Below, in pieces: positions 1,923-32,689 of a DNA stretch of 32,715 nt. Each line of letters begins with the position of its first letter. The stretch's first letter is position 1. A program made the position numbers and the translations under genes. The notes beneath the pieces were generated by a model. The model ran no database searches and was not told where the DNA came from. It was given only the letters and a program-made list of their open reading frames with translations. Source of the DNA: a plasmid; assembly GCF_053078305.1 (NCBI RefSeq), contig NZ_CP166878.1; one strand, 5' to 3'.

Positions 1923-2987
1923 ATGGATAAAAAGACAAAAACATATCCTTTTGGTGACATTGAGTTTTTTGACCAGTTAGAGGAACATGCATGGGACCAG
2001 ATTCATGATGGTATGCTACCAATTATGGATTTGTATCTTGATCCGACAGTAACCGATATATTTATAAACAGGTATGACAATATATATACATCTGTCAATG
2101 GCAAGTATGTAAAGACCGACAGTTCCTTTTCCAGTGAACGGGCACTTAAAGCCTGGATTGATCAAATCGCAACGGTGTTGAGGCAGCCATTTTCAACGTC
2201 AGGAAACTATAAATATGGTGATGTCATTGAGCCTGTACTTGATGCCCGATTTCCCGATGGTTCCCGGTTGATGTGTACAGACCCGGTGATTTCACCGCAG
2301 GGTTCTACGGTAAGTCTTCGTAAAGTACCTAAGCAAATACTGGAAGAAAAAGATTTTATAAATTCCGGTATGTTGACGAGAGATATTCTTGATTATCTCA
2401 TTAGTGTTATACAAAAACGGAAAAATTTTATTGTTGCTGGTAATACTGGTTCTGGCAAAACATCACTTTTACGCTTGCTCGCCAGGTATATTGATACGAT
2501 GGAGCGTGTTATCACCGCCGAAGACACTCAAGAACTTCATATACACAGGTATTTTCCGTTAGGGATTGCTCTGGAAGCTGCACATCGTAAAGATGTGAAT
2601 GCGGATCTTCCTTCTCTGGTTCACCTGACTATGCGTGGTAATCCCGATCGTGTATGGGTTGGGGAGGTAAGAACGGCAGAGGCTATAGCTGCTTATTACA
2701 TGGTTCTGGCAAGTGGAACTATAGGTAATGCTACAACTCTGCACTCCGTTACCCCTATGGGGGCAATACGCAAAATGACCTGGCTTATGTCAAGCTATCT
2801 CAGTATCGATTTTCAGATAGCTCAGGATTTAATTATGTCAGAGGTTGACGTGATTATTCAGTGCCGGAGAACATCAAAGCATGGAAGAAGAATTACAGAT
2901 ATCGTCGAAATACGTGAAGGGAAAATTGTTCCTATATTCAAGTTTGATGAAGAGCAAGAAGTACATGTCAGGTTTGACAAAAAATGA
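1923..2987 (+). CDS. virB11: VirB11-family secretion ATPase
   Basis: The 354-aa ORF has the Walker A motif AGNTGSGKTSLLRLL. It also carries the downstream motifs ITAEDTQEL and RGNPDRVWVGEVR, which are typical of VirB11/CpaF hexameric ATPases. Confidence 0.85.
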   Translation: MDKKTKTYPFGDIEFFDQLEEHAWDQIHDGMLPIMDLYLDPTVTDIFINRYDNIYTSVNGKYVKTDSSFSSERALKAWIDQIATVLRQPFSTSGNYKYGDVIEPVLDARFPDGSRLMCTDPVISPQGSTVSLRKVPKQILEEKDFINSGMLTRDILDYLISVIQKRKNFIVAGNTGSGKTSLLRLLARYIDTMERVITAEDTQELHIHRYFPLGIALEAAHRKDVNADLPSLVHLTMRGNPDRVWVGEVRTAEAIAAYYMVLASGTIGNATTLHSVTPMGAIRKMTWLMSSYLSIDFQIAQDLIMSEVDVIIQCRRTSKHGRRITDIVEIREGKIVPIFKFDEEQEVHVRFDKK

Positions 2988-3000
2988 ACATTTAGCATTA

Positions 3001-3080
3001 TATGCTTATATGCTTATATGCTTATATGCTTATATGCTTATATGCTTATATGCTTATATGCTTATATGCTTATATGCTTA
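3001..3080. repeat. Perfect tandem array, 10 x 8 bp (TATGCTTA)
   Basis: Counted directly: ten uninterrupted TATGCTTA units. Degenerate units flank it (TAGCATTA at 2993-3000 and TATCATTG at 3081-3088). It starts 14 bp after the virB11 stop codon. Confidence 0.95.
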
Positions 3081-3105
3081 TATCATTGTGTTTGTGTGAA
3101 ATATT

Positions 3106-5508: not shown

Positions 5509-8109
5509 ATGGGGCAGAGCTATAACGAACATCTGAATCTGGCAGGCATCGAACAACATTCCGGGCAGGTGTATACCTATACTGGAGGTGCTTTTGGTGC
5601 TATTGAACTGACAGGTGTTGATCCAACGGGTGTTACCCCTTCTCAGGGTAGCCGTATTTCTTTATTACTTCGTAATATCGTTCAGTTACTGCCCCTTTCT
5701 GTCACACTGACTCAGTATTATATCCATAATGACGGCGTTAAGATCCGGCTGACAGGGCGTGATAATCAACGCAGTCAGTTACTTTCTATGCGTCGCCAGG
5801 CATATCTTAATAAATGTCGTAATTTAAATGCCTCAAGAATTATATGGACGCTGGATGTTCACCCGGAAGAGAATATTAATCGCCTGGCATCTGCCGAGTT
5901 TTTAAAGAATCTTTTTAACAGCATGTTTGATGACACAGCCAGACGTAAAGTCAGGCTGGCACTGTCAAATCGCGAATCGTTTATCATTGAGCGTCAGGCA
6001 TTTGAAAAACAGTGCCTGTTGCTGAAAGAAACATTACGCGATCTGGACTTACGCCTTTCTTTTATTTCAGAAGATAACAGGATTCTTGATTCAGAAGGGA
6101 TCTGGCGATTACAGAAGTTCCTTGCAACATTTAATCACCATTGGCTGGCTCCACGCCGTAAGGTCACTGTACCCAATGATATGTGGGATTGTCTGGCGAT
6201 TGAAGGTGACGATATCGAGGCCATTACCTGGCGTGGCGTTGATATGTTGAAGATCCAGGGGGTACGGCCTGTTTATGTTCGCCTGGCCAGTGTGTTGAAA
6301 ATAGGCGATGAATCTGTACCGGAATGTGCCTGGGCGCTGACAAATGGCAGACCAGTTTTACAGCGGGGTAACTACGTTTACTTCATGCGGTTCACTCCCG
6401 CCAGTGCCTTTAAGAAGTCACTGATGATCAGCGGGAAAGAAAACGAACTTGTCAGGACTCAAATCAGTTTGAGCGATTTAATGACTGACAGTACGAGCAA
6501 AGATATTCTCGATGAAAAATTGCGCAGAAATTCACATCTGATGAAGATGCGCGAAGAACTGGAGAATATTTCATATTCAGATGAGCGCCTGGGGATCTGC
6601 CAGGCCGGGATTGCTGTATTTAATACAGATCCCGATAAATTACTTGAGACTTGTGCGGATATTAACCGTAGTGTCTCTCAGACCATGCAAGTTGTATGGG
6701 AGACGGTAGCACAACTGGATGCTTACAAGGTTATGCAACCAGCCTACTCACGCAATACATTTCGTGCATTACAGCTTAACGCATCTCAGATGGGGGCGGC
6801 ATCCTTGTTCTTTAAATCCCATCCAGGTATTCCTGAATGGGAGCTAAATGGACGCATGGAGGAAGCCTTCTATATTCTTGAATCAGATGATGGCGTGCCG
6901 TTTTTCTTTACGCCAAAAGTTAAAGAAAAGCTACTGCTTCTTGGTAATGGGGCGACCCGTGGCGGCAAGACTTTTATGAAAAACTGTATTGCCAGCCATT
7001 TTATTAAATTCGGTGGTCTGTATAACTGTCTGGATATCGATCCTGGCTCTATCCCAATGGCTAATTTCTTTGGGGATGATGGGGCAGCATTTACCCTTGA
7101 TAGCGATTTTCAGTGTGGTTTTAACATGTTCAGTATGGCGCAAAGCAAGGATGACAGGGTATTTCTTGCGCATCTTATAGAGCAGTTAAAAGCAATGGCA
7201 GCAGAAAATGACAGTGAGCAGGATAAATATTTAACGCCTGATGAACTTGAAAATATAACAGTGTGTGCGAGTGATCTTCTTGTACAAAAATTTTCGCCGA
7301 ATGAGGGGCGTTTAAGCTCAATCACGTTGTCAACGCTGGTTTCTAAGTGTGGTCAGAGCGTTAAACGCAAGTTAGCGCCATTTATTAGTAATGGTATTTA
7401 TGGACGTTTATTTGATAACAAAGAGGACGCGATTGGTGTTCTTGATAAGCCGGTAGCTGTTTACAACCTTTCAGGTGTGAAAGATAACCATAATCTTGCG
7501 CGGCTTGTGCACCGTGAAATCTTCTTTCGTGTCGTTCGTTTGTTTGAATCACCGGAATATCGCACGATACCAAAGTTTTTTGAAATAGATGAGGCACAGT
7601 ACACCCTGTCTGTACCACATGCCGCAGAGTTCGCTACACAGAAAGCCCGAACCTGGTTTAAGCATGGTGGGGGTATGGGATTCTGGACTCAGAACCCGGA
7701 GCACTATTCATCACTGGATGAGTGGACTACGTTACGTTCCTCGGCGTCGGTGTTTATCTTTATGCCGGATAATGAGGCAACAGTTAAAGCATTCCATGAT
7801 GCTTATGGCTTCGATGAAGAAGAAGTGAATATTATTCGCAGCCTTAAGGTAAAACAGCAGTCGTATATAAAGATCCCGGACATGCAGATTGCAAAAGTGG
7901 TGAATCTGTTTGTTGAGGCTGAACAGTATGCTGTTTGTACATCAACGTCTAATGAAGCAGCCCTGGCAGCGGAAATATGGAAACGTGAATCAGATCCCGA
8001 TGTTGCAGTGCGACAGATTGTAGAAGGTCTGATAACGAAGTGTAATAAGGACTTGATCCCAACGCCTACAGAGACTGAAAAGGATAAAACGGAGGGGTTT
8101 TTCTTATGA
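5509..8109 (+). CDS. virB4: VirB4/TrbE-family T4SS ATPase
   Basis: The 866-aa ORF has the Walker A motif GNGATRGGKT and the Walker B motif KFFEIDEAQ. Its size and its position after the pilin and VirB3 genes fit VirB4. Confidence 0.9.
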   Translation: MGQSYNEHLNLAGIEQHSGQVYTYTGGAFGAIELTGVDPTGVTPSQGSRISLLLRNIVQLLPLSVTLTQYYIHNDGVKIRLTGRDNQRSQLLSMRRQAYLNKCRNLNASRIIWTLDVHPEENINRLASAEFLKNLFNSMFDDTARRKVRLALSNRESFIIERQAFEKQCLLLKETLRDLDLRLSFISEDNRILDSEGIWRLQKFLATFNHHWLAPRRKVTVPNDMWDCLAIEGDDIEAITWRGVDMLKIQGVRPVYVRLASVLKIGDESVPECAWALTNGRPVLQRGNYVYFMRFTPASAFKKSLMISGKENELVRTQISLSDLMTDSTSKDILDEKLRRNSHLMKMREELENISYSDERLGICQAGIAVFNTDPDKLLETCADINRSVSQTMQVVWETVAQLDAYKVMQPAYSRNTFRALQLNASQMGAASLFFKSHPGIPEWELNGRMEEAFYILESDDGVPFFFTPKVKEKLLLLGNGATRGGKTFMKNCIASHFIKFGGLYNCLDIDPGSIPMANFFGDDGAAFTLDSDFQCGFNMFSMAQSKDDRVFLAHLIEQLKAMAAENDSEQDKYLTPDELENITVCASDLLVQKFSPNEGRLSSITLSTLVSKCGQSVKRKLAPFISNGIYGRLFDNKEDAIGVLDKPVAVYNLSGVKDNHNLARLVHREIFFRVVRLFESPEYRTIPKFFEIDEAQYTLSVPHAAEFATQKARTWFKHGGGMGFWTQNPEHYSSLDEWTTLRSSASVFIFMPDNEATVKAFHDAYGFDEEEVNIIRSLKVKQQSYIKIPDMQIAKVVNLFVEAEQYAVCTSTSNEAALAAEIWKRESDPDVAVRQIVEGLITKCNKDLIPTPTETEKDKTEGFFL

Positions 8110-17644: not shown

Positions 17645-17727
17645 TGCAACAACCCCCTGATATCTCTCTTAGAGCTTTTGCGGGGCCAAAGAAGATAATC
17701 AGGGGGTCCAAAGCAGGCTTTTGCCTG
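17645..17727 (-). ncRNA. Predicted CopA/Inc-type antisense RNA controlling repA
   Basis: A minus-strand promoter reads TTGTAT (17761-17756), a 16-nt spacer, then TATAAT (17739-17734). The transcript would form a small hairpin (caggc/gcctg, 17713-17726). It would then form a long bulged hairpin closed by CCCCCTGAT/ATCAGGGGG (17653-17706), followed by the tail UUGUUGCAUU. It lies 55-130 nt upstream of repA, as in IncFII replicons. Confidence 0.55.
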
Positions 17728-17780
17728 TAAAGGATTATAGCAAATGCATTTTTCAATACAAGACTACTGCCCGGCAATAA

Positions 17781-18506
17781 GTGCGGGCGGTGGTGGCTGA
17801 AAAGAACAATTCCTTAATCCCCCGCATATCGCCGTCAGGGGTGGCCAAACAAAGTCCATGCTATAACGTTGTGTCGCGTAAGCGACGCCGTTTCCTCAAT
17901 CGCTGGATTAAATCGCTGGCGACGGTCGCTGGGCGTGTCAAAATCAAAAACGAACTCCGCCGCCGTATCCGGCATAACCGATATTGGGTTAATGAGGCTA
18001 ACAAGTTTGGCATAGAGGCACTTTGCGAACTGATGTTAGCTATCCTGGATGATCTCGATTTACGCTCCTGGGAAACCAGGCATAACCTCGAAACACTGGC
18101 AGAACGTGCCGGACTGGTGACACGCAGTGACGCGGGGCGTAAATCTATTTCCCGTGCCAGTAGGGGATGTGATCGCCTGGTCTGGTTGAATGCGATCATT
18201 ACAGATAAAGCGCCGTTTAACCCCTATGATGCACGGTGTGCCTGTAAACACATTGAAGTAACCGAAGACTTCTTTGCCATACTCGGCATTCCGTTAAAAC
18301 TGGTTTATCGGGAACGTGCCAGGCTGTTAAAGGCAGATCCTAATGAAATGATTTACTCCGGGGATGCCAGACTGATAGCTATCAGAGTCCAGAACTGGAC
18401 ACGGAAAGCGGCAGCCGGATTAGCCCGGATGAAAGCGAAACGCGACGCAGCTCGACAACGCAAAAAAGAATATTACGCTCACCCACCTACCCCTATTCCG
18501 GTCTGA
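17781..18506 (+). CDS. repA: IncFII-family replication initiator RepA
   Basis: ETLAERAGLVTRSDAGRKSISRASRGCDRLVWLNAIIT parallels R100/R1 RepA (TTLAIECGLATESGAGKLSITRATRALTFLSELGLIT, recalled from memory). The C-terminus is basic. The start codon (GTG at 17781) is uncertain. Confidence 0.8.
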   Translation: MRAVVAEKNNSLIPRISPSGVAKQSPCYNVVSRKRRRFLNRWIKSLATVAGRVKIKNELRRRIRHNRYWVNEANKFGIEALCELMLAILDDLDLRSWETRHNLETLAERAGLVTRSDAGRKSISRASRGCDRLVWLNAIITDKAPFNPYDARCACKHIEVTEDFFAILGIPLKLVYRERARLLKADPNEMIYSGDARLIAIRVQNWTRKAAAGLARMKAKRDAARQRKKEYYAHPPTPIPV

Positions 18507-29328: not shown

Positions 29329-29925
29329 CTATTGCATTCCCTTTTTTTCTATCAGTGTTGAAAGTTTTTCGCTGTATTCTTTTCGATTATGATGTAATTT
29401 TAGCCTAACGTTAGAAAACTTTTTAAGAACAACTCTTCTATTGCTATAGAAGTCCTTTTTTGATATTTCTCCACAAAGATAAAGAATCCGTTGTTGCTTA
29501 ATGATGTTATCTGTAAGGGTGATAAGGGATATCATCATCATAACAACAGGCGATATAAGAACAGGTATTTTTATTTTTTTGTTATCATTATTTATATGGT
29601 TGTATATATCTTTATAATTTGGTATTTCTGAAACAGTTTGTTTTAAGTGTTCGTAATGCGACGAAAACTCATCTTTTTGAATACGGATAATTTCTTCTGC
29701 TTTTGGCAATAATGATTTTGCAACTATATGTTTTATATAGTGCTCTTTGTTTTTATAACGTTTTAGATTGCTTGATGTAAAAAGAATTTCAAGATATTTA
29801 ATTGTATTAATCGCATCGGTAACATGATGCTTGTGAATAAGTTTTTCACTATGTAATTTGTTGTCAATTTCTCCAATAAGAAATTGATCATTTATTCTTA
29901 AATTAAGTTGTTTTCTCTCCATCAT
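29329..29925 (-). CDS. Hypothetical protein with one central transmembrane helix (AT-rich operon, gene 2)
   Basis: The 198-aa ORF has a very Lys/Asn/Ile-rich composition and a single hydrophobic segment (IPVLISPVVMMMISLITL). It has an ATGA overlap with the upstream gene. Confidence 0.6.
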   Translation of the reverse strand: MMERKQLNLRINDQFLIGEIDNKLHSEKLIHKHHVTDAINTIKYLEILFTSSNLKRYKNKEHYIKHIVAKSLLPKAEEIIRIQKDEFSSHYEHLKQTVSEIPNYKDIYNHINNDNKKIKIPVLISPVVMMMISLITLTDNIIKQQRILYLCGEISKKDFYSNRRVVLKKFSNVRLKLHHNRKEYSEKLSTLIEKKGMQ

Positions 29926-30380
29926 ATATACCCACCTTTTTCTTCAACTAGTGTCAGTTTATCAGTCGATGCGATTTTGTTACCACTCATAAAAAACATA
30001 CTGACCCATAAGTACAAATCTGATTCATAGTAAAATCCTTCGTGTTTTTTTAGTTTGCTTAAAGTGCTATAATGTTCATCCTTATTTTTTGCATAATAAA
30101 GTTTGACAATAAGGTAACACTCTTCCTGTGTTCCCTTTGATAAACACCAATCGAATATTCCATCCCATGAGATATTTTCTAAGCTAAAAAAGTTCTGTTT
30201 TCTTAATTTCTGGCGTTGTCTGTTTAAAAGAATGCTTTGTTGAGTATCGTTGTATTGCTGGGCACCAAGAACAGGATCTTCACAGCGAACGCCACGAACA
30301 GGGCGTTTGTCAAATGACAGTTCCCATAGGTTAATATCTGGTATGAACTCGTAATCTTCCGGTTTCGCCAGACGGAACAT
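29922..30380 (-). CDS. Hypothetical protein (AT-rich operon, gene 1)
   Basis: I prefer the ATG at 30380, which has an AAGGA ribosome-binding site, over the ORF-track start at 30449. The product is about 152 aa, soluble, and of no family I recognise. Confidence 0.6.
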   Translation of the reverse strand: MFRLAKPEDYEFIPDINLWELSFDKRPVRGVRCEDPVLGAQQYNDTQQSILLNRQRQKLRKQNFFSLENISWDGIFDWCLSKGTQEECYLIVKLYYAKNKDEHYSTLSKLKKHEGFYYESDLYLWVSMFFMSGNKIASTDKLTLVEEKGGYI

Positions 30381-30460
30381 AACGCTATCCTTTGTCTGTT
30401 GTGTGTTCGGTAGTTCTGGTTTACCGTAAAACAAAAATTTTTTCAACAAAGGTGTTTAAT

Positions 30461-30676
30461 ATGAGCGATAAGATCCAAGAAATCACACAAAAAATTGAGA
30501 AATTGCAGATAAAATTGAGCAAAATTGAAGAGGAAAAAAACAAGATACAATCAAAGCTGGTTAAGTTAGAAGAAGAGAAAAAATCAATACAGCGCAAGCT
30601 GATTCTACAGGAGAAAAGAGAAGAGCTTGAAATGCTTTTAGACAAAGAAAGTTTTGATATTTTATTCAATAAATGA
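30461..30676 (+). CDS. Small coiled-coil protein
   Basis: The ORF is 71 aa from the ATG at 30461. It has heptad-like K/E/L/I repeats (KIEKLQIKLSKIEEEKNKIQSKLVKLEEEKKSIQRKL). It runs divergently from the AT-rich operon. Confidence 0.5.
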   Translation: MSDKIQEITQKIEKLQIKLSKIEEEKNKIQSKLVKLEEEKKSIQRKLILQEKREELEMLLDKESFDILFNK

Positions 30677-30942: not shown

Positions 30943-31883
30943 TTTTTGGGAAGTCCTCTTACTGAACCAACAGAAAGAGGACGAAAAAGAGGAAACATGA
31001 ATGTTTCCTCTGCCATGTTACTACCGTGAATTTTCAGCTACTTATCTGTACTGGTTGCCTCCAGTATTTTCAGATTCATCTACAGACTTCGGCTATATCG
31101 TCTGTAGATTTTTGCGCCTACTCGTTCACTCTCCCACACTCAGGAATGTAATTTCGGTGCCACCCGAAATTTTCCAGAGTGCTTCCCACGTTAGCTGATC
31201 TTGTCGGGATAACCCGCCACTGGCTCAGACAAACTACTAGGCTACGCCTTACCATTTCTGGCTTTCAGGGGGCCGAGATTCCAAAGCACCTCCCTTACTC
31301 ATAATTTGCCGTCAACACCATAGCCAGACACTTAAGTCATGGCTGGTTATCACTTACCCGAATGCGACCTCTTCGGACGCAATTACAGGCTTGAGCTTTA
31401 CAGCGATCTGCAAAGGTTGCCCCTCACAGTACCGACGTTTCCAGGTTTCCCCTCAACGCCCTGACACCTCACGATGCCCTCAGCAGCCCACCTGTCGGGA
31501 ATATGTTGTACCTTCTCAAGCACCCCATATTCGGGATTTTCACCCGTTCAAGATCAACAGGGATCACGTAGTCACCTACGTTCCCGTTTCCGTGTCGCCC
31601 AGTCTCACGCTTTGGCGTGGATTGGGTCGGACAGGGGAGTTTCACCCCCGAACGCCCTTCGTAGCCGTACCAGCCCAATTACAGGCATACGGCTTCGGCA
31701 GTAACTGTTATCAGGGTTGGCAGTCCTGATAACTCACCTTCGTTTGGCAGACGAAGGCTTTTGGCTTTTTTCGTCTTTCGACTTCCCAAAAATGCGTCGA
31801 GAGTTGGCAGCTCGCAACGCACGTTTTGTTACGTAAGCGATGCTTGATAGTCCGGCGCCCGAAAGGCTCGCATCGAGCCGGAC
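30943..31883 (-). ncRNA. ORF-less group II intron-like ribozyme with domain order D5-D6-D1-D2-D3
   Basis: All coordinates are plus-strand and the RNA is read on the minus strand.
- Domain V is AGCCGUAUGCCUGUAAUUGGGCUGGUACGGCU (31694-31663). It has the AGC triad, a 2-nt bulge and a 5-bp upper stem, and compares with the consensus GAGCCGUAUGCGAUGAAAGUCGCACGUACGGUUC.
- A domain VI-like hairpin with a GAAA loop and a bulged A (at 31627) spans 31657-31624.
- Downstream lies domain I-like sequence, including GGGUGAAAAUCCCGAA.
- A J2/3-domain III-like motif, UAGUAGUUUGUCUGAG, lies at about 31240-31225.
- The 13-nt termini UUUUUGGGAAGUC (31792-31780) and GACUUCCCAAAAA (30955-30943) are complementary.
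- A promoter-like sequence reads TTGCGC (31918-31913), a 17-nt spacer, then TATTAT (31895-31890).
- No reverse-transcriptase ORF is present. Confidence 0.55.
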
Positions 31884-31984
31884 ATCAGTATAATATTTAA
31901 CCTGTAAGCGCAGCGCAAGGAATCTCTTTATAAGGTATTCCCATATGTTGATTTCTTTTATGTAGCGGTTACTACATAGCTTTT

Positions 31985-32689
31985 ATGAGGATTTCGATGA
32001 TTTACCGTTTTAAAACCGATTTTATGCGTCAGATAGCCATGCTGTTTTCGCTGGGATATACAAGGTGGTTTGGTGGCGAAATTCCTCTAAACCCTCACTA
32101 TAAATTCGTGTCACTAAAAGCACGTTTTGATGAACTCTACGCTATCAATGCAACAGCACAACAACGTTTCAGGAGAAGAGAAAAAGGAGTAGCAAACTGC
32201 AAATTTCTTGTCTGGTTTGATGAAAAAAATGCAACTCTTTTATGGGTGTTACTTGCAACAGAAGGGGATGTATACAATGAAGAGAAATTTTATGATGGTA
32301 TGAATAAAAAAACTCGTATTTCTGTTTCAGGTTATGAACTAAAAACAGTTCCACATCGAGGTAGAAAACCTAGCGTTTCATGGGCTATGAAGAAAGAAAC
32401 TTATGAAAAGTGGCATGCGGATATAAAGAAGTCGATAAGAACAAGAAATGATGAGAATATAGAAAAATTATGGTATTCACTCAGGAGGGTGGCAGGGTTT
32501 AGTGAGTTACGTAGACAGGTATTTAAGTTACAGAGATATGCAATGACAGAGTGGAAACGCTCCAGAAGAGGTGAATATCCTTATGAGAAGATTTTTGTTG
32601 GATGGTTAGGACGATTTAAACAAAGTGAAACCATCACAGATGAAGAGCTTTTGTTAATATCGAAGTCAAAAAAAGCTGATATCTTTTAG
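31985..32689 (+). CDS. Hypothetical basic protein
   Basis: The 234-aa ORF contains several early Met codons, so the start is uncertain. It is divergent from the ribozyme-like locus. I recognise no family. Confidence 0.5.
   Translation: MRISMIYRFKTDFMRQIAMLFSLGYTRWFGGEIPLNPHYKFVSLKARFDELYAINATAQQRFRRREKGVANCKFLVWFDEKNATLLWVLLATEGDVYNEEKFYDGMNKKTRISVSGYELKTVPHRGRKPSVSWAMKKETYEKWHADIKKSIRTRNDENIEKLWYSLRRVAGFSELRRQVFKLQRYAMTEWKRSRRGEYPYEKIFVGWLGRFKQSETITDEELLLISKSKKADIF

Follow-up and report, generated by a model that had tools for sequence, protein, structure and literature searches.

The DNA analysed here, a window of 32,715 nucleotides, makes up an entire circular plasmid of E. coli (about 32.7 kb). 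It encodes a basic protein transcribed away from a structured RNA with the look of a permuted group II intron. The locus raises the question of what this protein is and whether it serves the RNA beside it. The reading frame was examined using ORF calling, which gave an uninterrupted plus-strand frame at 31985-32689 with a capacity of 234 amino acids, as the first-pass annotation had reported. The open frame stood and the start moved. ATG 31985 is an in-frame upstream start lacking a ribosome-binding site; the second methionine, ATG 31997, is preceded by a Shine-Dalgarno sequence, is the start used by close homologues, and yields the length of a 230-residue hypothetical protein (WP_021563020.1) annotated by RefSeq at the equivalent position of pEc631_3. 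On these grounds the true start is most likely ATG 31997. The resulting protein has a pI of 9.9, with 46 lysine and arginine residues against 28 aspartate and glutamate residues, and the basic motifs noted earlier (RFRRREKG, HRGRKPS and KRSRRGEY) are all present. A word-indexed search gave seven clusters of close relatives with identities of 43–99%, and an exhaustive profile search gave 764 clusters (50% identity) at E ≤ 1e-3 against the family profile. Because of these matches the frame is judged to be a conserved gene and no chance reading frame.

The protein had been described as unassigned, a label that did not survive, since its family already has a published name, AcpG, though no Pfam entry or known function. 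Roth, Weinberg, Vanderschuren, Murdock and Breaker described a conserved ORF of about 260 amino acids, TTHC007 of Thermus pTT8, located immediately upstream of circularly permuted (CP) group II RNAs and divergent from them. They named it AcpG and reported no detectable homology to any known protein class (Roth et al., 2021, iScience; PMC8637638). A family HMM built from the target protein and 143 family representatives scored TTHC007 at 56.6 bits (E = 1e-19) over residues 7–209, nearly its whole length. Alignment of eight close homologues with TTHC007 using hhalign gave E = 3e-5, and tblastn gave E = 1e-19 to a G. diazotrophicus gene labelled TTHC007 in the context table of Roth et al. Based on the family HMM and tblastn matches, the frame at 31997-32689 encodes an AcpG. 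Direct pairwise BLASTP between the target and TTHC007 of T. thermophilus HB8 pTT8 was not significant, and the link to that protein therefore rests on the profile.

The present AcpG and the published AcpG/TTHC007 proteins are alike in size (about 230–260 residues), in plasmid location, in having no Pfam family and in being transcribed divergently at 100–160 nt from a CP group II RNA. On pTT8 the published RNA (6026–4860, minus strand) and acpG (6164–6943, plus strand) are divergent across a gap of 138 nt, and on pPNAP05 the gap is 159 nt. The present gene differs from the published family in being joined into an operon with genes for a type IV coupling protein (T4CP) and VirB11. The published taxon list of Roth et al. 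contains no E. coli or Salmonella member, and the locus is thus an enterobacterial member of an already described, functionally unexplained RNA-protein pair. Within the limited library of literature searched, AcpG/TTHC007 is mentioned nowhere beyond Roth et al., and a physical or functional interaction between AcpG and the ribozyme is not established in that literature, Roth et al. included. Searches of AcpG against Pfam, NCBIfam, PHROG, PADLOC and PDB sequences, profile searches included, gave no match. No Pfam domain was found in the 143 family members, nor in ten longer members of 314–408 residues, eight of which were candidate domain fusions. A role for acpG in a defence system was considered and dropped, as there was no PADLOC signal.

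The neighbouring RNA was examined by homology, covariance modelling and consensus folding, and its elements are listed with the protein-coding genes in Table 1. Searches of the RNA block against Rfam returned no family match even at E ≤ 10 and no match to a group II D5/D6 model, and the ribozyme class was therefore established through homology to published members and through structure. The block gave a blastn match to the published Pna-1-1 RNA (E = 1e-14). A covariance model, R1, built from copies of the present RNA region, scored 205 bits on the RNA core of this plasmid (31750–31561, minus strand) and matched Pna-1-1 (103 bits), Gdi-1-1 (86 bits) and pTT8 (20 bits) within their published coordinates. 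The core was also found on plasmids of Halomonas, Azotobacter, Thiothrix, Paraburkholderia, Ralstonia, Acinetobacter and others, and the 3' two-thirds of the RNA is conserved among loci. Nucleotide identity is 80–83% to loci whose AcpG is merely 48–58% identical, so that the RNA is more conserved than the protein.

Table 1. Features of the acpG locus and its operon, with coordinates in the 32,715-nt window. Elements of the RNA are predicted.
Feature	Position	Strand	Basis
acpG coding sequence, 230 aa	31997..32689	+	ORF; homologue starts; RefSeq; family HMM; tblastn
Shine-Dalgarno GAGGA, 5 nt 5' of ATG 31997	31987..31991	+	read from sequence
CP group II ribozyme gene, about 900 nt, P1-P2-D5-D6-linker-D1-D4	30984..31883	-	homology, covariance model
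Putative RNA promoter: -35 TTGCGC (31918-31913), 17-nt spacer, -10 TATTAT (31895-31890)	31890..31918	-	read from sequence
5' hairpin, P1-like, GUCCGGC...GCCGGAC	31850..31883	-	sequence; P1 assignment inferred
P2-like hairpin with conserved CUGCCAAC loop	31705..31735	-	stem covaries across 10 loci
Domain 5: AGC triad, five base pairs, UG bulge, upper stem with UAAU loop	31663..31694	-	covariation
Domain 6, bulged branch-point A at 31627	31624..31657	-	RNAalifold, covariation
3' splice site, after AAU	31623-31621	-	definition of Roth et al. (NU)
20-nt linker CCACGCCAAAGCGUGAGACU between 3' and 5' splice sites	31601..31620	-	covarying hairpin; ends in IBS1
5' splice site (GGGCG from 31600) and D1 start, GGGCGACACGGAAACGGG	31583..31600	-	invariant in 10 aligned loci
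EBS1 AAUCUC, conserved D1 terminal loop	31275..31280	-	covaries with IBS1
Terminator-like hairpin and T-run, RNA 3' end	30984..31011	-	sequence
Type IV coupling protein (T4CP, VirD4/TraD-like), 621 aa	1..1866	+	blastp, weak TIGR03743
VirB11-type secretion ATPase, third gene of apparent acpG operon	1923..2987	+	Pfam T2SSE, E = 3.5e-25

Analysis of ten diverged copies using RNAalifold gave compensatory changes in 22 of 43 predicted pairs. Domain 5 has compensatory changes in six pairs and a geometry that fits the description of Roth et al. (PMC8637638). The adenosine at 31627 of Domain 6 was unpaired in all ten sequences and the pairs of the Domain 6 stem covary. The UGCCA loop of the P2-like hairpin is also present in the published alignment rows, and the region of the 5' splice site and D1 start is almost the same in the published Thermus rows (UGGGCGACGCGGAAAG). 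EBS1 covaries with the last six bases of the linker across loci (GAGAUU/AAUCUC, GGUGUU/AACAUC), and in the present plasmid five of the six positions pair (31275-31280 with 31601-31606), leaving one A.C mismatch. The mismatch, at the penultimate linker base, is found in the enterobacterial copies and in locus L029, and most other lineages pair at all six positions; it is A.C where the linker ends in CU and A.A in locus L004, where the linker ends in AU.

By homology and covariation the RNA is a CP group II ribozyme, which bears out the D5-D6-D1 permuted arrangement proposed in the first-pass annotation. The ribozyme appears catalytically intact and self-processing of the present copy is predicted. 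The 20-nt linker is the predicted excised RNA circle, using the splice-site definitions (NU and GGGCG) and the circle range of 15–86 nt given by Roth et al. (PMC8637638). The RNA shares with the published CP group II ribozymes (formerly T-large RNA; Cte 1, Pna-1-1, pTT8) the D5-D6-linker-D1 order, the NU/GGGCG splice sites, the linker hairpin, the EBS1 loop and a length of about 900 nt, and differs from them in its enterobacterial lineage and in the single A.C mismatch of EBS1-IBS1. The ends of the gene were placed using the promoter-like site and the terminator-like hairpin. We infer the promoter from its two hexamers; a consensus scan did not call it, and its -35 element is weak. The predicted -10 element lies approximately 100 nt from the start codon of the protein, in agreement with the divergent arrangement noted earlier. 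The GC content of the RNA block is 0.495, compared to about 0.35 in the flanks. Three other identities considered for this GC-rich block, a ColE1-type origin, an oriT and a pseudogene, were excluded by the strand-specific covariation of D5, D6 and EBS1-IBS1.

Co-occurrence of the protein and the RNA on other replicons, a check proposed in the first-pass annotation, was positive in both directions. The RNA core pattern was scanned over one genome per GTDB species, giving 36 loci. An AcpG ORF lay directly upstream and divergent in 24 of the 27 loci with upstream room, and no AcpG ORF was present in the fetched DNA of the other three. In the reverse direction, 18 of 22 non-E. coli AcpG plasmids from PLSDB have the RNA within about 1.5 kb, the four exceptions being two longer AcpG-like proteins of acetic acid bacteria and two IS-flanked fragments. 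Among four distant metagenomic members the RNA was adjacent in three, in two of these immediately downstream on the same strand, and the fourth member is on a 2-kb contig. The association had been called purely positional; it is positional, and the partnership is a predicted one, and as judged by this co-occurrence across genomes it is evolutionary besides.

The RNA is also found by itself. Small RepL plasmids of E. coli, about 3 kb in size, have a ribozyme copy of roughly 96% identity but lack an AcpG ORF. These are NZ_CP045717.1 (L002, 1307-2025) and six similar plasmids, on which the copy spans P2 onward. Strain FHI_NMBU_11 holds both an RNA-only RepL plasmid and a 34-kb acpG plasmid, and the six other genomes with the small RepL plasmid gave no match to the large acpG plasmid. 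Genomes with the RNA and without acpG, together with self-processing in vitro without protein, were reported by Roth et al. (PMC8637638). On the Gluconobacter and Novacetimonas plasmids (L056 and L057, 3483-4649) the AcpG-like domains lie within longer proteins of 388 residues, and no ribozyme core was found within 3.5 kb of either gene. In Novacetimonas a short ribozyme-like match was obtained on another plasmid record, NZ_CP062149.1, possibly from the same strain. The Pandoraea plasmid pPO70-4 (L059) has two covariance-model matches to the ribozyme core beside acpG (1471-1663 and 2938-3102), one flanking and one overlapping the end of an IS256 transposase gene, which suggests that the ribozyme gene there is duplicated or IS-disrupted.

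The fold of AcpG was predicted using AlphaFold2 with 143 sequences, which gave a model with a pLDDT of 96.4 and a pTM of 0.90. The model consists of an N-terminal α/β domain with two β-hairpins and a C-terminal helical bundle. Members of the family are mostly about 210–300 residues long among the matches listed, and the conserved residues include E96, R107, Y113, E114, W129, R148, PGF166-168, R172 and R188, with D100 joining E96 and E114 among the conserved acidic positions. The conserved arginines R148, R172 and R188 fall in the helical bundle. Structural alignment covered about 100 residues with 5hhj, a chain containing only the reverse transcriptase (RT) domain, and about 170 (166–170) with full-length maturases, a difference that points to a palm plus thumb (X-like) layout. 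AcpG would thus have a reduced RT-like palm followed by a thumb-like helical bundle, most like those of group II intron maturases, and the fold is probably RT-derived.

Neither the terminus of the first palm strand nor the turn of the first hairpin has a conserved acidic residue; judged by topology and conservation these two sites would be RT motifs A and C, and the catalytic aspartates are apparently absent. A Foldseek search of the model against the PDB, also proposed in the first-pass annotation, returned nothing at E ≤ 0.001. No match was obtained when the AcpG profile was aligned using hhalign with two group II RT sequences, of which the GsI-IIC RT sequence was 100% identical to 6ar1_A, and no RVT_1 or GIIM match was found in the 143 members. 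The RT-like fold is without support from Foldseek or from any sequence method. Because of the missing RVT_1 and GIIM matches, the null hhalign result and the lack of acidic residues at the motif A and C positions, AcpG is not classed as an RT family member and appears to be RT-like in fold only.

Compared with the group II RT/maturases (7UIM chain D, 6ME0 chain C and the GsI-IIC RT 6AR1), AcpG is about half as large, and its gene sits outside the RNA whereas theirs are encoded inside D4. In the topology-based mapping it has no conserved YxDD or motif A aspartate, its fingers are apparently largely missing, and it has no DNA-binding or endonuclease domain. Plant MatK and nMAT and spliceosomal Prp8 are RT-fold proteins that aid RNA splicing after loss of polymerase activity. 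The first AcpG model, which was of low confidence, had Prp8 among its weaker structural neighbours. These proteins are eukaryotic or organellar and far larger than AcpG, and the relationship to them would be one of analogy. There was no relaxase among the structural neighbours. Roth et al. state that ORFs for intron-encoded proteins (IEPs) are never in or near CP group II RNAs (PMC8637638) and report no homology of AcpG to any class, whereas the present model resembles RT/maturases.

The first-pass annotation had taken the protein to be the only nearby candidate partner of the RNA. The plasmid is circular and acpG is therefore not at an edge; the gene heads a T4CP-virB11 operon, so other neighbours exist. 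The T4CP gene starts 26 nt past the acpG stop, with equal spacing in pEc631_3. Annotated T4CPs of Ralstonia and Paraburkholderia match its product at 29–31% identity (E of 1e-64 to 1e-68), and the protein of locus L003 does so at 40%. Ten PLSDB records, pEc631_3 among them, cover the region at a nucleotide identity of at least 99%, and the plasmid is found in E. coli strains from several sources. It carries a VirB-type type IV secretion system (T4SS), ParA/ParG and CcdAB. As in the present plasmid, acpG heads virB11/T4SS genes in L003 and in pGDIPal5I, and in these two the RNA reads toward the T4CP gene. In the GTDB set, 11 of the 36 loci have a T4CP homologue immediately after the RNA and in the same orientation, and because of this arrangement RNA and T4CP could be co-transcribed at such loci. 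The supplementary tables of genomic context in Roth et al. (PMC8637638) list T4CP and VirB4 neighbours, which the paper does not discuss.

The present plasmid and those of loci L003, L008, L013, L054 and L055 are T4SS plasmids of E. coli, Ralstonia, Paraburkholderia and Gluconacetobacter. Each encodes a coupling protein together with a complete VirB set, and the RNA/acpG pair is always at the head of the T4CP or virB11 genes. Neither annotation nor MOB-suite gave a relaxase for these plasmids, which are typed non-mobilizable. Of 32 AcpG-bearing plasmids 31 are typed non-mobilizable, some with a full T4SS. AcpG contains no known relaxase domain from Pfam or NCBIfam, and no hidden relaxase was found among the other ORFs of the plasmid or among the proteins common to two related T4SS plasmids. 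The large proteins common to the E. coli, Paraburkholderia and Gluconacetobacter plasmids are only T4SS parts, the T4CP, SSB, ParA and AcpG.

The reading we favour, with moderate confidence, is that AcpG is the conserved genetic partner of the ribozyme and acts as its non-polymerising, maturase-like cofactor. AcpG would bind the ribozyme and stabilise its active fold at cellular Mg2+, and this would promote back-splicing, releasing the 20-nt RNA circle and leaving a 2'-5' branched RNA. The analysis shows that the protein belongs to the AcpG family and co-occurs with the RNA, whose identity and integrity are likewise observations. We infer the RT descent of AcpG, its binding to RNA, its effect on splicing and any downstream biological role. 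The proposal that the basic protein is a candidate RNA partner has gained support, the AcpG family having been named for exactly such an association. Protein assistance to the ribozyme was raised as a possibility by Roth et al. (PMC8637638), and an RT/maturase-like fold would give that idea a structural rationale. The basic charge of the protein and the conserved arginine and lysine residues of its helical bundle also favour the cofactor reading. Against it, the RT-like fold has no backing from Foldseek or sequence comparison, the conserved acidic positions E96, D100 and E114 are not accounted for by it, and the RNA persists without AcpG on the 3-kb RepL plasmids and at three of the 27 genomic loci. 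The self-processing in vitro without protein and the genomes with the RNA alone, both reported by Roth et al. (PMC8637638), also count against it.

Few large natural ribozymes lack a known biological role; CP group II ribozymes are one such group, and AcpG is their sole recurrent protein neighbour. The plasmid is natural in E. coli, and the RNA-protein relationship is therefore directly testable in that host. Confirmation of the RT/maturase-like fold would change the published picture in which the permuted ribozymes have shed their intron-encoded protein: the protein would instead have moved outside the RNA and been reduced to a non-polymerising core, in parallel to MatK, nMAT and Prp8. The fixed place of the pair at the head of T4CP/virB11 operons, on T4SS plasmids that lack a relaxase by the searches above, provides a concrete biological context in which its function may be sought. 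The fold and the conserved T4CP/T4SS context are the leads added here.

Other readings of the locus place AcpG on DNA. It is unlikely that AcpG regulates transcription by binding DNA at the divergent promoters or at the T4SS operon, with its proximity to the RNA reflecting shared regulation. The protein is small, basic and encoded first in its operon, and the C-terminal helical bundle gave generic structural matches. Between the RNA promoter and the acpG start, the intergenic region that the two genes share contains a 6+6 inverted repeat (ATGTAGcggttaCTACAT, 31960-31977), which could be an operator. However, a helix-turn-helix, ribbon-helix-helix or other DNA-binding family was found in none of the 143 members. 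The association with the RNA is also kept on replicons whose downstream genes differ considerably, and some members have the RNA directly downstream on the same strand, two features that make a link through a regulator and its operator hard to reconcile. A role in plasmid DNA transfer, with AcpG acting alone or as a ribonucleoprotein in DNA processing or T4CP coupling and replacing the missing relaxase and oriT, is distinctly unlikely. It would suit the position of acpG as first gene of the T4CP-virB11 operon and at the head of virB11 in L003 and pGDIPal5I, the T4CP homologues that follow the RNA, and the prevalence of non-mobilizable plasmids whose common large proteins hold no relaxase candidate. 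Yet the RNA-AcpG pair is also carried by plasmids of 4–8 kb without a T4SS, by pTT8 and, according to Roth et al. (PMC8637638), by a Thermus chromosome. AcpG has no HUH or catalytic-tyrosine relaxase signature and no structural match to relaxases, and a relaxase that is undetected is not the same as one that is absent. Extremely improbable is the extension of this idea in which the AcpG-ribozyme particle is the DNA-processing module, an RNA-based relaxase, of a widespread group of proteobacterial T4SS plasmids with a coupling protein and without a recognisable relaxase. If this were true, the branched ribozyme would use reverse back-splicing to nick the plasmid at a hairpin-plus-6-nt site like the nic region of an oriT and would stay covalently attached to the DNA 5' end, AcpG would hand the complex to the T4CP, and the RNA-only 3-kb plasmids would be explained as persisting mobilisable passengers.

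The remaining readings concern the RT-like fold and the association itself. It is very unlikely that AcpG is an active minimal polymerase copying the circle or the branched RNA, for instance through rolling-circle reverse transcription. Such an activity would be consistent with the predicted fold, with the conserved acidic residues E96, D100 and E114, with the circle of 15–86 nt that the ribozyme yields (PMC8637638) and with structural neighbours that include DRT2 and DRT9, two RTs that function together with non-coding RNAs. Against this, the AcpG family, at 210–260 residues, is smaller than the structurally matched RT chains of more than 300 residues, of which 166–170 residues align, there is no conserved acidic residue where the topology-based mapping puts motifs A and C, and there is no sequence similarity to RVT_1. 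That acpG is an unrelated gene travelling with the RNA by chance or shared ancestry, with no functional link, is highly improbable. Some RNA loci are without AcpG, the two full-length AcpG-like genes of Gluconobacter and Novacetimonas are without a nearby RNA, and Roth et al. warn that the association may not imply physical interaction (PMC8637638). However, the adjacency spans Alpha-, Beta- and Gammaproteobacteria and Thermus, and multiple phyla according to Roth et al. (PMC8637638). It is found on replicons of different Rep types and in three relative orientations, and the predicted fold suggests the class of proteins by which group II introns are served.

Several smaller features of the plasmid were also observed. 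Downstream of the ribozyme, past the terminator-like hairpin, two overlapping minus-strand ORFs of 175 and 198 residues occupy 29329-30449; they gave no family match beyond weak noise and could be expressed by read-through from the RNA promoter. A plus-strand ORF of 94 residues at 30392-30676, with a predicted coiled coil, overlaps the 5' end of the 175-residue ORF and may be no real gene. A PK-repBA pseudoknot was identified using Rfam at 17651-17778 (86 bits), just 5' of an ORF starting at 17781, and marks an IncB/I-type antisense-controlled replicon. A second Rep gene, of the RepA family by annotation, is present on pEc631_3.
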